Assembly: GCA_964412615.1 (NCBI GenBank)
Contig: CAYPPK010000005.1
Span: forward strand, 1 to 55,703
Source of the DNA: an uncultured Candidatus Saccharibacteria bacterium
Lineage (GTDB): Bacteria; Patescibacteriota; Minisyncoccia; Sungbacterales; HO2-52-23
DNA: 55,703 nt
Direction: 5' to 3'
The translations under genes and the position numbers were made by a program. Shown one piece after another: positions 1,288 to 48,609 of this stretch. Position 1 is the stretch's first letter. Every line of letters begins with the position of its first letter. The notes below the pieces were generated by a model, which worked only from the letters and a program-made list of their open reading frames with translations, made no database searches and was not told where the DNA came from.

Positions 1288-4134
1288 TCAAGATTTTTTA
1301 AGCCAGTCCCCGGTATAAGAGTTTTTTGCCTTCATCAAGGCCTCGGGAGTTCCTTCGGCCACCACTTCTCCACCTTTTTCTCCTCCTTCCGGCCCCAGAT
1401 CAATTATCCAGTCGGCGTTTTTCAACACGTCTAAATTATGCTCAATCACCAGCACGGTGTTGCTTTTGTCCACTAAAGCTCTAAGCACGGTAAGCAATTT
1501 GCGGATATCGTCAAAATGCAAGCCGGTCGTGGGCTCGTCCAGAATATACAAAGTTTTGCCGGTATCGCGGCGCGATAATTCCGTAGCCAGTTTGACTCGC
1601 TGGGCCTCGCCCCCGGATAGAGTCGGGGCCGGCTGACCCAATTTCATATAGCCCAAACCTACCTCGTGCAAAGTTTGCAATTTTGCTTTAATGGGCGGAA
1701 TGTCTTCAAAGAATTTCAGCGCTTCTTCCAACGACATATTCAAAACTTCAGCAATATTTTTACTTTTGTACTCAATTTCCAGCGCTTCCCGATTGTAGCG
1801 CCGGCCCTTGCATTCTTCGCATTCCACATAAACGTCCGGCAAAAAATACATTTCAATTTTCTTTACCCCCTGTCCCTCGCACGCTTCGCATCTGCCTCCT
1901 TTTACATTAAAACTGAATCTTCCCGGCTCGTAACCACGGGCGCGGGCTTCCGGCGTTTTGGCAAAAATACCTCGGATAAAGCCAAAAGCGCCGGTATAGG
2001 TTGCCGGATTGGAGCGCGGCGTGCGGCCGATGGGAGATTGATCCACCACCACGGCTTTATTAATGTTTTCCGTGCCGTCCAGTTTTTGGTGCTTACCGGG
2101 AAAAAGGTGGGCGTTATAAAATTTCACCAGCAGAGCTTTGGCAATAATGTCATTCACCAGCGTAGATTTGCCCGAGCCGGAAACTCCGGAAATGGCCACC
2201 AATTTTTCCAAAGGTATTTTGATTGTAAAATTTTTTAAATTATGTTCAGCCGCTCCTTTGACCGTTAAAAATTTTTGTTTTCTAGCAGAACCGGAATGTT
2301 TTGATTTTATGTTTATGGTTTTTTTGCCGCTTAGATATTGCCCGGTTAAAGAATGAGCTCGGAACAATTTTTCAGGAGTGCCGGCAAAAATAACTTCACC
2401 ACCGTGCTTGCCCGCTCCGGGTCCCAGATCAATTACCCAGTCGGCCTGCCGCATGGTTTCGGCGTCATGTTCCACTACCATGACCGTATTGCCAAGATCC
2501 CGCAGTTCTTTGAGCGTAGCAATCAGGCGCGCATGATCCCGGGGGTGCAAACCTATGGAGGGTTCATCCAAAATATAAATAATGCCGGTCAGGCGGGATC
2601 CGATTTGGGTAGCCAGCCGAATACGTTGGGCTTCTCCTCCGGAAAGCGAGGTAGATTCCCTGGCCAGCGTAAGGTATTCAACACCTACATCGGTTAAAAA
2701 TTTTAAACGCTTGACGATTTCTTTGAGCAAAGGAGACGCTATCTTAAAATCGCTGGCCGATAATTTGATATTTTTTTGCGCCAAGAAATTCTGAAAAAAT
2801 TTTTGCGCGTTTTCGGACGTGCGGTCGGTAACCGAGGCGATATTTTCTTCCCCGATTTTCACGGCCAAAGCTTCAGAGCGCAGTCGTTTTCCTTTGCATG
2901 CCGGGCATACTTTGATGATCATGTATTTTTCAATTTCTGCCCTGGTAAAATCAGAATCGGTTTCTTTCCATCTTCGCTTGAGATTGGGAATTACGCCTTC
3001 AAAGGCGGCCGAGCCGCGCTTTTCCTCTTTTTCGCCGTAAAGAATGAGGTCCCTAACCTGCGCTGATAGCTTCTCGACGGGTGAATTTAAAGAAAATTTA
3101 TATCGGCTGGCCAAATCATCCAAAATCCACCAATACCAGCTTTGCCTTCCCACTCGGTGTGAGGCCGAAGCCCAGGGACGGATAGCGCCTTCCGCGATAG
3201 TAAGACGCTTATTGGGTACTACCAATTCCGGATCAACTTCCAGCGTGGAGCCAAGACCGGTGCAAGTCGGGCAGGCGCCGTAAGGACTATTGAAACTGAA
3301 AATTCTCGGTTCAATTTCCGGCAGGCTGATGTCGCATTCCAGGCAAGCGAAATGCTCGGAATAATTAAGGTCCGCATGTCCGGAGCGAGCGATTATTAAT
3401 AAACCCTTGCCGATTTTTAAGGCGGTTTCCACCGAATCCCGAATCCTCGCCCGTTCAATATCGGCAGAAAGGGCAAAGCGATCCACCACCACTTCAATGG
3501 AGTGTTTTTTATTTTTATCCAAAATTTTTTCAATGGCGTCATCCAGCAGCATCATTTCGCCGTCAACTCGCGAACGAATAAATCCGGCCCTTTTTACTTC
3601 TTCCAGGACGGTCCGGTGCTCTCCTTTTTTCCCGCGGATTAAGGGCGCCAAAATTAAAAGCTCTTCGCTTTTGGGCAATTTGGAAAGGGAATTTACAATA
3701 TGATCCGAAGTTTGCCTGGAAACTGACTGGCCGCAATTGGGACAATGCGGCTTTCCTATGCGGGCAAAAAGAATTCTTAAATAGTCATAAATTTCCGTAA
3801 TTGTGCCCACGGTAGAGCGCGGATTGCGCGAGATGGATTTTTGATCTATAGAAATGGCCGGCGAAAGCCCGTCAATTGACTCTACTTCGGGTTTGTCCTG
3901 AACTCCTAAGAATTGACGGGCATAAGAAGAAAGGGATTCCACAAATCGCCTTTCCGCTTCCGCATAAATAGTATCAAAAGCCAAAGAAGATTTTCCCGAA
4001 CCAGAAAGCCCGGTGATCACCACTAGCTTATTTTTAGGTATATCCAAATCAATATTTTTCAGGTTATGCACCCGAGCGCCGCGGATTTTTATATACTGAC
4101 CTTCGGTTTGTCTTTTCTTCTTCACCATGGCCAT
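1288..4134 (-). CDS. uvrA: excinuclease ABC subunit A
   Basis: Two ABC ATPase modules are present ([26 protein letters not shown] twice) with zinc-finger Cys clusters, about 950 aa. The start is placed at MAMVKKK; the TTG-initiated extension to 4158 is unlikely. Confidence 0.95.
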
Positions 4135-15521: not shown

Positions 15522-16097
15522 TTATTTTTTGCTTTTTGCCAGCCGCACTCGCACGGGTCTTAAAACTTTTCCCTTCAAAAAATATCCTTTCTGCACTTCT
15601 TCGGCAATTGATCCCTCCGGCAGATCCGTCTCAATTTCTCCGATAGCTTCATGCTTTTCCGGGTCAAATTGATCCCCTACCTCCACCTTTATTTGTTCTA
15701 ACCCCCGTTTGCGCAAAATGTCTTCAAATTGGGAGCGGATTAAAAGAATGCCTTTTTCCAGCGCGGGATCCCGCCCGCCTGCCGCTGGCCTAGACTCGCC
15801 CTTGAAATGAAATTCAAGGGCGGCAAAACTATCCAGTACCGGCATTATTTCTTGGACAATCCCCGCGGTGATAAATCGAGCCATATCCTCCAGCCGTTTG
15901 CCTTCCTCATTTTTATAATTGATATGATCGGCTTTTGCTCTCTGCCAGCCGGCTAAATAATCCTGGCGCTCGGCATCACATTTCCTTAACTCCTCTTTCA
16001 ATTGTTTAATTTTTTTCTGGGCGTCGGGCAAAGCAGCATTGCTATCTTCATCGGCTATCATTTCTAAATCGTCATTTGTTTTGTCTTCTTCGTCCAT
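15522..16097 (-). CDS. grpE: nucleotide exchange factor GrpE
   Basis: It has a coiled-coil N-terminus and a C-terminus FDPEKHEAIGE...VQKGYFLKGKVLRPVRV typical of GrpE. Confidence 0.9.
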   Translation of the reverse strand: MDEEDKTNDDLEMIADEDSNAALPDAQKKIKQLKEELRKCDAERQDYLAGWQRAKADHINYKNEEGKRLEDMARFITAGIVQEIMPVLDSFAALEFHFKGESRPAAGGRDPALEKGILLIRSQFEDILRKRGLEQIKVEVGDQFDPEKHEAIGEIETDLPEGSIAEEVQKGYFLKGKVLRPVRVRLAKSKK

Positions 16098-21879: not shown

Positions 21880-21921
21880 CAATTAACATAATATATGCGA
21901 TCGCATATATTATGTTAATCA
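21880..21921. repeat. palindromic repeat element, copy A (perfect 38-bp palindrome 21882-21919)
   Basis: attaacataatatatgcga|tcgcatatattatgttaat. A near-identical copy lies at 22316-22357. Confidence 0.9.
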
Positions 21922-27715: not shown

Positions 27716-27783
27716 CTGGCCATCAAAATACAAATATAAAAGCGCCAGATTCTGGCGCTTTTATATTTGGGCAAATTAGCAAA

Positions 27784-45128: not shown

Positions 45129-45163
45129 AAAAAGAAAAAGCCTTTAAAAGGCTTTTTCTTTTT
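45129..45163. terminator. bidirectional terminator between trpS and ORF 45172-45768
   Basis: Perfect palindrome aaaagaaaaagcctt-taa-aaggctttttctttt. Confidence 0.75.
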
Positions 45164-45993: not shown

Positions 45994-46581
45994 TCATAGA
46001 TAAAATCTCCATAACTTATTTCCCCATTTCCCGGCATAATTCACCCCGATTCGTTTGCCCTGTTGGATTGCGCTTGCTGGAACTCGAACTTTCCGATCCT
46101 CTATCCAGAGACCAGCTTTTTTATTGGCTGACCGGGCGTTGAGATTCCTATCAATTTCCAATTTTTTACATACTCTTCCCGGACCCTTAGTTTCAAACAT
46201 TCCAACATTCTGCAGAATGTTGGAATGTTTTGCCGACATGGCAACCGAGCGGATAAGCACGGCGGCTGGATACCCTTCTTTTTCGGTAACAATATTCAGG
46301 CAGCAATGCATTCCATACACCAAATAGACATACCAGTATCCGGATTTGCCAAACATAACCTCGGTTCGCGGAGTTTTGCCGCGGGCCGCCCGAGGCGAGC
46401 CCCGCCAAAGGCGGGAAGCATGCGAGGCCTTATCCTCCGGCCCGATATACGCTTCAACTTCCGTAATCATGCCTGAAATTATTTTCTGGCCGACTTTCCG
46501 AACCAAAAATTTACCCAATAAATCATGGGCCACCTGAAGGGTTGGGCGATTGAAAAAATTTTGCGAAAGAATTTTAGCCAA
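45994..46581 (-). CDS. DNA-3-methyladenine glycosylase (Mpg/AAG family)
   Basis: FFNRPTLQVAHDLLGKFLV...ITEVEAYIGPEDKASHA...YVYLVYGMHCCLN is typical of the Mpg family. Confidence 0.85.
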   Translation of the reverse strand: MAKILSQNFFNRPTLQVAHDLLGKFLVRKVGQKIISGMITEVEAYIGPEDKASHASRLWRGSPRAARGKTPRTEVMFGKSGYWYVYLVYGMHCCLNIVTEKEGYPAAVLIRSVAMSAKHSNILQNVGMFETKGPGRVCKKLEIDRNLNARSANKKAGLWIEDRKVRVPASAIQQGKRIGVNYAGKWGNKLWRFYL

Positions 46582-47730: not shown

Positions 47731-47759
47731 AAGGTTATTACCCGCCCAAGTTTTGTCCA

Positions 47760-47832
47760 CGCTCCCACCGGGATTCGAACCCGGGTTACTGGAATGAGAA
47801 TCCAGCGTCCTAGGCCTCTAGACGATAGGAGC
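47760..47832 (-). tRNA. tRNA-Glu (anticodon CUC)
   Basis: The minus strand reads GCTCCTATCGTCTAGAGGCCTAGGACGCTGGATTCTCATTCCAGTAACCCGGGTTCGAATCCCGGTGGGAGCG. It has a Glu-type D-arm and anticodon loop TTCTCAT. Confidence 0.88.
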
Positions 47833-47946
47833 ATTTGTGGACAAAATTTGGGTGGGACGATAGGGCCTAACCAGGGAATTATAGCAACATAAGATATGTC
47901 TTGACAATTATCAAATTGGCGTTGCTATTGCTTTTTTCAAAAAAAA

Positions 47947-47969
47947 TGATATAATTAATAGTAAGGAGG
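47947..47969 (+). promoter_or_regulatory. extended -10 promoter and strong SD of the GC-islet ORF
   Basis: TGaTATAAT at 47947-47955 and AAGGAGG at 47963-47969, 5 nt before the ATG at 47975. Confidence 0.55.
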
Positions 47970-47974
47970 ATGCC

Positions 47975-48277
47975 ATGAACATCATGATCGTGGTCCTGCT
48001 CCTGGGTCTCTCCGTCGCCGTCGGCGGATGCATCGGCGGCGATTACGTCCTCTACCAGGCCGGAAAGCAGTTGTTCCGGCCGGGGTACGAACCCTATTTC
48101 GTTTATCCGCCAGGAGGCGGGGAACCGTACATAGCAATGGACTGCCGTCTCCCCGGTGCTTTTGACCGGGCGCGGCAGAAGGCACTCCCGGTTCGGAAAG
48201 AAACCGGGAGGTGGCCCGAGGTTCGGTGCCTTCCCGGCACCGAACCGGCAACCGTCAACCCGGGGAGCGCGAAGTAG
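47975..48277 (+). CDS. putative small lipoprotein encoded in a GC-rich islet (100 aa)
   Basis: It has a signal peptide with lipobox-like LSVAVGG|C and GC-biased third codon positions. Its 3' part is occupied by strong hairpins, so the true length and coding status are uncertain. Confidence 0.45.
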   Translation: MNIMIVVLLLGLSVAVGGCIGGDYVLYQAGKQLFRPGYEPYFVYPPGGGEPYIAMDCRLPGAFDRARQKALPVRKETGRWPEVRCLPGTEPATVNPGSAK

Positions 48278-48306
48278 CCCATGTGCTACCCGCGCTCCCC
48301 CAACCC

Positions 48307-48340
48307 GCAGCCCTTCCGAAAGGAGGGGCTGCAAAAATTT
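48307..48340 (+). terminator. GC hairpin with GAAA tetraloop at the end of the GC islet
   Basis: gcagcccttcc-gaaa-ggaggggctgc (11 bp including one G-U pair) is followed by AAAAATTTTT. Confidence 0.5.
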
Positions 48341-48343
48341 TTA

Positions 48344-48370
48344 TAAACAAAAGGCTGCTCGGCGAGCAGC
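48344..48370 (-). terminator. intrinsic terminator after ORF 48370-48609 (end of the dcw transcription unit)
   Basis: gctgctc-ggc-gagcagc is followed on the minus strand by CTTTTGTTT. Confidence 0.65.
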
Positions 48371-48609
48371 TATGCACTGGATAAAATTGCCAATTTTTCT
48401 CTCCTCTGTTCTATGTATGTTTTTGCGGACAGGGTCTCCTCAAAATCAGTAACTTTCCATTCACAGGTTTTACGCCATCTCTCTGTGCCGCTGGGATTGC
48501 TGCCATCGTAAACGTATTCTATCCCCCAGAATTCATCGTCGTATCTTTCGTAATAATATTTAAGTCCCAATTTTATCTCCTTTGGATCTATCTTTATCTT
48601 ATGCTTCAA
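48370..48609 (-). CDS. hypothetical protein (79 aa) appended to the dcw cluster
   Basis: The ORF has a TTG start 8 nt after the murF stop and is followed by a terminator. I do not recognise a family. Confidence 0.45.
   Translation of the reverse strand: MKHKIKIDPKEIKLGLKYYYERYDDEFWGIEYVYDGSNPSGTERWRKTCEWKVTDFEETLSAKTYIEQRREKLAILSSA

Follow-up and report, generated by a model that had tools for sequence, protein, structure and literature searches.

A probable moron-like lipoprotein mini-gene with a GC-rich, hairpin-bearing message, present as two diverged copies in a groundwater Patescibacteria genome

A GC-rich islet lies between the murF gene and tRNA-Glu(CUC) on contig CAYPPK010000005.1 (assembly GCA_964412615.1; 55,703 nucleotides, hereafter the window) of an uncultured groundwater member of the Patescibacteria, and it contains a 100-codon open reading frame (ORF), designated ORF100. 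Computational analysis revealed that the islet is protein-coding, with a real coding sequence and not an accidental ORF, and that, judging from sequence, ORF100 belongs to an orphan gene family with two diverged copies in this genome. The islet is likely to be an autonomous mini-gene of the moron type for a lipoprotein whose mRNA is stabilised by structure, and it represents one of two copies of a cassette. Expression of the frame would depend on a promoter with an extended -10 element and on a strong ribosome-binding site, and a signal peptide ending at a lipobox Cys would direct export and lipid anchoring of a mature protein of ~81 aa. The mature domain is predicted to be a small beta-beta-alpha-beta unit, held by a Cys-27 residues-Cys pair and followed by a conserved C-terminus that ends in lysine. 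Over the final third of the message and the 3' untranslated region (UTR), four GC-rich hairpins would form one after another, with the terminator as the final one; these hairpins may shield the mRNA from 3' exonucleases and stop transcription before the convergent murF unit. The features of the islet and its surroundings are summarized in Table 1.

Segmentation of the window, which had a mean G+C content of 44.6%, placed the top-scoring GC segment at 47989-48332 (66% G+C); it scored 63, and the next-best segment scored 31. The 300-nt bin 48001-48300 reached 65.7% G+C, and all other bins of the window were at or below 55.3%. This bears out the sharply bounded islet described in an initial annotation made from the letters alone, whose hand counts for three lines of sequence (41/60, 42/60, and 18/60 G+C) were exact. 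The G+C content of ORF100 at codon positions 1/2/3 was 0.66/0.49/0.75, and the difference between third and second positions (GC3 and GC2) indicated codon periodicity (p = 5e-5, permutation). Native genes showed a GC3 of 0.44 +/- 0.045 with a maximum of 0.50, which places the islet about 7 standard deviations (SD) higher. Within the window, neither the islet nor any portion of it recurred.

The second copy was revealed by read mapping at low identity. The C-terminus of the paralogue was predicted from a 30-nt overhang, which led to the retrieval of protein P0122 and then of its DNA (records L104 and L105). The paralogue (P0122/P0123; P0122 has 91 aa) matched ORF100 with a BLASTP E value of 4e-9. 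Because the depth of the second copy tracked that of the first in five runs (second/first: 28.6/30, 37.1/38.3, 3.8/~5, 3.3/3.5-7, and 3.6/4-5), it was assigned to the same genome. The analysis thus covered 55.7 kb plus 7 kb of this genome. Both proteins share a signal peptide with lipobox Cys, a D-C...C-LPGT core in which the paired Cys residues stand 28 positions apart, and the identical end VNPGSAK; in ORF100 the common residues are Cys57, Cys85, and the C-terminus CLPGT..VNPGSAK.

DNA alignment of the two copies detected no homology beyond 47922..48345. Identity was ~88% from GAGGT (48218) through the T-run, and the centre of the cassette was unalignable at the DNA level. Synonymous sites were near saturation (proportion of synonymous differences, pS, 0.64 overall), with a pS of 0.41 and a nonsynonymous proportion (pN) of 0.12 for the block encoded by hairpins H3 and H4 (EVRC through the stop codon). 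The 3' UTR differed by ~10%, and conservation of the promoter, ribosome-binding site, and 3' hairpins exceeded that of synonymous sites. Like the first, the second copy forms a GC islet (62% G+C; GC1/2/3 0.62/0.52/0.73) among neighbours with GC3 values of 0.41-0.52, and composition switches at the ATG in both copies.

The initial annotation had proposed homology searches with BLASTP/BLASTN; beyond this one diverged copy in the same genome, the searches made yielded no relatives elsewhere. Word-indexed and exhaustive phmmer searches of ~15 billion proteins returned only the query itself, and nothing significant was obtained from JGI metagenomes, viral contigs, GTDB genomes, phage records, or plasmid records. 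Neither an exact 27-mer from a hairpin nor a 30-mer from the paralogue occurred in GTDB genomes. A scan of viral contigs for the promoter/Shine-Dalgarno pattern gave 31 matches, none with a similar gene; 30 of them represented one unrelated phage region and the remaining one another unrelated contig.

The N-terminus of ORF100 reads MNIMIVVLLLGLSVAVGGC. A pattern scan with a lipobox criterion of the PROSITE PS51257 type, as used for Lgt/LspA substrates ([LIVMFWSTAG](2)-[LIVMFYSTAGCQ]-[AGS]-C, with the Cys at 15-35, no preceding charge, and a hydrophobic h-region upstream) recovered ORF100. The h-region and lipobox are ...LLLGLSVAVGG-C19 in ORF100 and ...LLLLILVSAG-C17 in the paralogue, and the sequence thus supports the lipoprotein-type signal that had been read in the frame, with lipobox Cys19 and a signal peptide kept in the paralogue. 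AlphaFold modelling from the single sequence gave pLDDT (predicted local distance difference test) values of 84-88 over residues 41-90, arranged as strand-strand-helix-strand. The antisense frame of the islet is likewise open, and its product, modelled as a control, reached a pLDDT of 45.5.

Upstream of the frame, the TGnTATAAT element and the perfect AAGGAGG reported in the initial annotation were recovered where it had placed them. The paralogue promoter is built alike (TTGATT, 16 nt, TGATATAAT), and the paralogue retains AGGAGG, then GATGCC, and ATGAAC. The promoter is missing from the list of a stricter sigma-70 scan because its -35 element matches only 3/6 positions. In the cassette, the conserved promoter and 5' UTR are rich in A+T and resemble the host's own tRNA promoter.

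Table 1. Features of the GC-rich islet and of the insertion site (positions in the window unless a relative is named)
Feature	Position	Strand	Description
Whole cassette	47922..48345	+	Promoter to terminator T-run; homologous to L104 ~2672-3065 (DNA alignment)
Promoter-like site	47928..47955	+	-35 TTGCTT, 16-nt spacer, extended -10 TGATATAAT; read in sequence
Extended -10 TGATATAAT	47947-47955	+	
Shine-Dalgarno AAGGAGG	47963..47969	+	5 nt ahead of ATG
Start codon ATG	47975	+	
ORF100 (100 aa, P0001)	47975..48277	+	Putative small lipoprotein; signal peptide ends at lipobox Cys19 (48029-48031)
Hairpin H1	48055..48084	+	8 perfect pairs at 48058-48081; 11 pairs including one mismatch
Hairpin H2	48185..48210	+	Perfect 9-bp stem, codons 71-79
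Hairpin H3	48220..48246	+	Perfect 11-bp stem; encodes VRCLPGTEP
Hairpin H4	48262..48300	+	10-bp stem and inner 5-bp stem (48274-78 with 48285-89); stop codon TAG 48275-48277 inside
Hairpin H5 and AAAAATTTTT	48307..48342	+	Intrinsic terminator of the cassette (terminator scan)
Terminator of convergent murF-ORF79 unit	48354..48370	-	Right edge of insertion site
Promoter of tRNA-Glu(CUC) and malic enzyme	47878..47907	-	Divergent; TTGTCA, 18 nt, TATAAT with TG; left edge of insertion site
murF-tRNA-Glu interval in relatives			L082: 73-aa ORF only; L083: ~220 nt non-coding; L084, L085: GH15 gene

Folding of the predicted 386-nt transcript gave z = -7.5 against shuffled controls, with z = -8.3 for the 3' 166 nt and only -2.9 for the first 221 nt. 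All four of the consecutive hairpins listed in the initial annotation exist; the one given a 7-bp stem is the perfect 9-bp stem of H2, and a fifth hairpin, H1, lies further upstream, in a 16-codon stretch that is missing from the paralogue in the protein alignment. The window contains ~20 perfect hairpins of at least 8 bp, three of them in the islet, and its GC-rich perfect hairpins are confined to the islet and position 15797. The H5 stem-loop (48307-48332) is GC-rich, has 11 pairs including one U.G wobble that pairs on the + strand only, carries a GAAA loop, and is followed by the U-run AAAAATTTTT, as in an intrinsic terminator; its efficiency is uncertain because the U-run begins 5 nt past the stem. 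The GGTTCGG sequence that had been seen to recur among the hairpins does not stand out as a motif, since by our estimate ~1.3 such 7-mer pairs are expected by chance within 150 nt of the islet's composition. The proposed Rfam/cmscan check gave no family at or above the gathering threshold at the islet: Rfam 15, whose families include RNase P, tmRNA, SRP, 6S, and Transposase-2, returned only tRNAs over the whole window at gathering thresholds, and at E values up to 10 only tRNAs and noise were reported over 47800-48450.

At its 3' end, the paralogue repeated this arrangement of four hairpins, with z = -6.5 across the full unit and z = -6.6 in the 3' portion. Its H2 is an 8-bp hairpin with a homologous 3' arm (ACCGG) and a differently placed 5' arm, its H3 is a bulged stem in which ~10 pairs are kept through a register shift, and its H4 is ~90% identical, with a C>T change at 48291 turning a G-C pair into G.U. 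The 11-bp stem of H5 is kept with the wobble replaced by a Watson-Crick pair; 4/4 loop bases and 1/22 stem bases are changed. Because the stem is retained while all four loop bases change, the GAAA loop appears not to be essential and H5 to be terminator-like. All one-sided stem changes yield G.U or A-U pairs valid on the + strand. In the covariation check that the initial annotation had proposed, the layout recurred, and double-sided changes in H3-H5 in a fixed register were not found. These comparisons suggest RNA-level selection on H2-H4.

Strain variation was examined in Logan contigs, assembled as unitigs from seven public groundwater runs (X1, X2, X3, X4, X5, X6, and X22) that belong to two studies. 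An X3 strain allele of the same locus differed mainly at third codon positions, with two synonymous changes (TAC>TAT and ATA>ATC), GCA>ACC giving Ala->Thr, an in-frame AGG insertion, and two substitutions in the terminator stem that kept its pairing. The X3 contigs carried no substitutions over ~1.6 kb of flanks. The regulatory flanks and the protein termini are conserved between the copies and the centre is variable, with strains differing more within the gene than around it. Because the centre is variable and local strain polymorphism is in excess, the product may be a surface-exposed protein under diversifying pressure.

The neighbours of the islet are murF, tRNA-Glu, and genes for malic enzyme and a DNA glycosylase. 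The contig comes from a member of the Patescibacteria/Parcubacteria; the closest relatives of MurF bear the name Candidatus Sungbacteria, and the closest protein identities were 60-75%. The order murF...tRNA-Glu was kept in four relatives (L082-L085) with different content in the interval, and, in the comparison of syntenic regions that the initial annotation had called for, the islet was missing at this site in 4/4 of them. Because the interval is hypervariable and the cassette is missing there in relatives, we conclude from the sequence comparison that the cassette came by insertion and that the islet is a lineage-specific insertion. The adjacency to tRNA-Glu, which had also been pointed out, appears incidental, as the promoters are divergent and the tRNA has the islet on its 5' side. 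Integrases usually target the 3' end of a tRNA, and tRNA-targeted integration was rejected by eye on account of the same 5' position.

An assembly chimera or a contaminating fragment, favoured only by the sharp compositional boundary, can practically be dismissed. The islet was present in the contigs of all seven runs at the depth of its flanks and with both junctions spanned, one X1 contig covered 47807-49200 without mismatch, and no joint skipping the islet occurred in the contigs of these runs. Independent assemblies from two studies thus gave the same sequence across both junctions, which refutes the chimera that the initial annotation had kept among its options. That annotation had also considered a structured RNA with an incidental ORF. 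A non-coding RNA gene of this kind would explain a GC-rich, strongly folding unit of ~380 nt between promoter and terminator, and ORFs of 100 codons are expected by our estimate in ~9% of frames at 66% G+C, the antisense frame also being open. It is nevertheless very improbable, given the codon periodicity, the synonymous and in-frame polymorphism, a pN below pS (0.12/0.41 against the paralogue), the conservation of hydrophobic signal-peptide codons in the paralogue, the confident fold of the sense but not the antisense product, and the lack of an Rfam match. We rejected it because codon composition, strain allele, paralogue comparison, and AlphaFold model agree. The hairpin stack itself survives this refutation, with a paralogue layout at z = -6.6 and a 3' UTR that has changed less than synonymous sites.

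Where the GC richness came from is harder to decide. Recent horizontal acquisition from a donor of ~62-65% G+C, with unameliorated composition and with hairpins that would be the donor's terminator and baggage resembling repetitive extragenic palindromes (REP), is a serious possibility to which we give somewhat less than even weight. The codon-position values fit a donor genome of ~62% G+C, the GC3 lies far outside that of native genes, and the islet is missing from a hypervariable site that holds other cargo in each relative. However, no donor or homologue was found in any of the collections searched, the promoter and 5' UTR are AT-rich and host-like with the compositional switch at the ATG in both copies, and, as the copies are saturated, both would have to be recent arrivals from one donor. 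The high-GC donor of the initial annotation therefore remains plausible and unproven: absence in relatives and deviant GC3 speak for it, the missing donor and two old paralogues against it. With a GC3 of ~0.74 in both saturated copies, either a single GC-rich source recently supplied the two or their high G+C content is being maintained; host mutation bias should have eroded it had the copies diverged in place. For old paralogues with such a GC3, a maintained property fits at least as well as recent transfer, and the cause may be selection acting on RNA structure or gene conversion between the copies that is biased toward G+C. One such account, in which the transcript has a dual function and the hairpin stack 48185-48342 also serves as an RNA module (a 3'-end-derived small RNA or a protein-binding element) whose selected structure keeps the G+C content high, seems unlikely to us. 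It would accommodate the persistence of the four-hairpin layout in the paralogue despite sequence change in H2 and H3 and the displaced 5' arm of H2, the ~10% difference in the 3' UTR against a pS of 0.41-0.64 at synonymous sites, wobble pairs that suit the + strand only, and z values of about -6.6 to -8.3 in both copies. Against it, the islet belongs to no Rfam family (the best sub-threshold match, Transposase-2, scored 22 bits against a gathering score of 42.7), only two independent sequences are available and lack compensatory changes on both sides of a stem when the register is fixed, protein-level constraint acts on H2-H3, and a terminator with stabilising hairpins accounts for the same data. 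A broader version is comparably doubtful; in it, the GC richness would be kept because the coding sequence doubles as structured RNA in a lineage-specific Patescibacteria cassette family, with RNA-level selection on a hairpin stack over its last third (for stability, a 3' small RNA released by processing, or localisation) and the cassette spreading within the genome as a promoter-to-terminator unit.

Several observations weigh against the interpretation of the islet as a lipoprotein mini-gene with a structure-stabilised message. The n-region of ORF100 (MNIMIVV) is without Lys or Arg, whereas the paralogue has Arg6, and the lipobox AVGGC is only loosely canonical. Codon periodicity was not significant for codons 70-101 alone (p = 0.18). 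No match giving ORF100 a function was obtained from Pfam, NCBIfam, PHROGs, or Foldseek against the PDB: Pfam was null for ORF100 and the antisense ORF, NCBIfam and PHROGs were null for these and two other frames, and the best Foldseek hit had E = 0.66, giving no structural match. Double-sided covariation in H3-H5 in a fixed register was absent among the three sequences, with a shuffle control that was non-discriminating. Finally, the conservation of H4-H5 could be explained by recent gene conversion instead of selection.

We compared the putative mini-gene with known systems. In lambdoid phages, morons are autonomous promoter-gene-terminator units between conserved genes, often for lipoproteins. 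The islet resembles them in having its own promoter, a factor-independent terminator, deviant composition, and a small protein predicted to be exported, and in being present or absent between syntenic genes that are closer together in relatives, although these signals are read from the DNA alone. Unlike a moron, it lies in no recognisable prophage, has housekeeping neighbours and no match in PHROGs, phage records, or viral contigs, and occurs as two diverged copies in a Patescibacteria chromosome. Variable surface-lipoprotein paralogues are known from Mycoplasma (the Vlp/Vsa type) and from Borrelia families with conserved upstream regions. As in these families, the 5' region, signal peptide, and lipobox of the islet are conserved, the mature part is diverged, the gene is multicopy, and strain variation is raised; unlike them, the islet has two copies, no tandem repeats, and no phase-variation switch (homopolymer or invertible promoter), and its C-terminus and 3' UTR are also conserved; a GC-rich composition and a hairpin stack are not known from those families. 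The lpp mRNA of E. coli is short, carries many stable hairpins, and has a long half-life. The islet is similar to lpp (Braun lipoprotein) in that its putative lipoprotein is very small and ends in lysine, its promoter and ribosome-binding site are strong, and its predicted mRNA is short and rich in hairpins. ORF100 differs in having no sequence or Pfam similarity to it and a predicted alpha/beta domain with a Cys pair rather than a coiled coil. The C-terminal lysine invites comparison with Braun lipoprotein, and linkage to peptidoglycan would be speculation.

An RNA family was also considered. Rfam RF03015 (Transposase-2 RNA) gave a weak full-length match at 48264-48333 over H4-H5, with 22.3 bits against a gathering score of 42.7, and the islet has a similar order of elements, in which GAGCGCGAA on the 5' side is followed by a hairpin of variable sequence, a GC hairpin closed by a four-base loop, and CUGCA. 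This identity was rejected, as the score is below threshold and the paralogue does not keep the loop or other matched bases. When GTDB genomes were scanned with the consensus pattern, 15 scattered matches appeared, 0 of which were confirmed by cmscan; the main text of PMC5737381 does not describe the family, and nothing came up when the literature was searched for its name.

Further candidates were rejected. A target of a diversity-generating retroelement, suggested by a GAAA-loop hairpin after a variable region, was discarded because no template repeat was found in the window; such a target would have one nearby, ~80-90% identical to the variable region, together with a reverse transcriptase. 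REP elements or bacterial interspersed mosaic elements (BIME) and miniature inverted-repeat transposable elements (MITE), which occur as numerous dispersed palindromic units irrespective of the surrounding genes, were dismissed, as the window contained no further copies and the deep runs showed two loci only, both whole-cassette. Type I toxin-antitoxin systems are recognised by a peptide of less than ~60 aa that is essentially one transmembrane helix, together with an antisense RNA promoter; the product here has 100 aa and a predicted folded domain, and no promoter-like site was found on the - strand inside the islet. Inspection by eye revealed no R'/R'' core sites of an integron attC.

Between murF and the islet lies ORF79 (window 48370-48609, - strand), a small orphan with only sub-threshold family matches. 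It gave no tblastx alignment at E <= 0.01 with the 73-aa ORF at the same position in L082, and the small gene in the murF to tRNA-Glu interval differs by lineage. A 19-nt insertion (ATTCATTTTCCTTGCCAAT) at window 48640, in the intergenic region between ORF79 and murF, was present in X1, X2, X3, and X22 as a strain-level indel. On L104, the second copy is preceded by a gene for a 722-aa protein with no Pfam match on record (460-2628) and followed by a convergent 136-aa ORF and then by SpoIIM-like and ABC-transporter genes.

On the other side of the islet, tRNA-Glu(CUC) (47759-47833) was 100% identical in the window and two relatives (L083:5620-5740; L085:7700-7820). Its leader and trailer form a ~20-bp helix (47741-47760 with 47837-47856, - strand) in which three pairs are changed on both sides with pairing kept; this looks like a conserved processing stem, and the tRNA looks to be co-transcribed with the malic enzyme gene. 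In L083 (5500-5790) and L085 (7510-7820), the tRNA and helix appear nested in pieces of a second tRNA-Glu-like gene, with a 5' piece GCCCTTATCGTC... and a 3' piece ...CCCGGGTTCGATTCCCGGTGAGGGCGCCA, and a remnant of this gene (GCCCTATCGTC) lies at ~47858-47868 (- strand) of the window. GC-rich palindromes also interrupt the tRNA-Glu-like gene, including the same 20-nt CCTGCCTGCCGGCAGGCAGG in L083 and L085. Intron-tolerant ARAGORN predicted no outer tRNA around the nested pieces in the relatives, and the pieces may represent either a pseudogene that was disrupted or an unusual organisation akin to an intron. Elsewhere in the window, long perfect AT-rich palindromes with stems of 16-18 bp occur at 21882-21919, 27731-27769, 45129-45163, and 46195-46230; some resemble bidirectional terminators, and the one at 46195-46230 sits within the DNA glycosylase ORF.

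The islet is neither a new RNA class nor a new mechanism, and its importance is moderate. As a clean natural example, it invites the question of why coding sequence can stay 20 points richer in G+C than its genome, with transfer, selection for mRNA structure, and biased gene conversion as candidate causes. Patescibacteria (also termed CPR, candidate phyla radiation) are mostly uncultured episymbionts whose surface proteins are thought to mediate host attachment, and very few of these proteins have been characterised. ORF100 and its paralogue form a two-member family of compact, small, lipoprotein-like proteins that, from their sequence, are apparently strongly expressed. Because the control regions are conserved, the centre is variable, and strain-level diversity is raised, this family would be a reasonable candidate surface factor.

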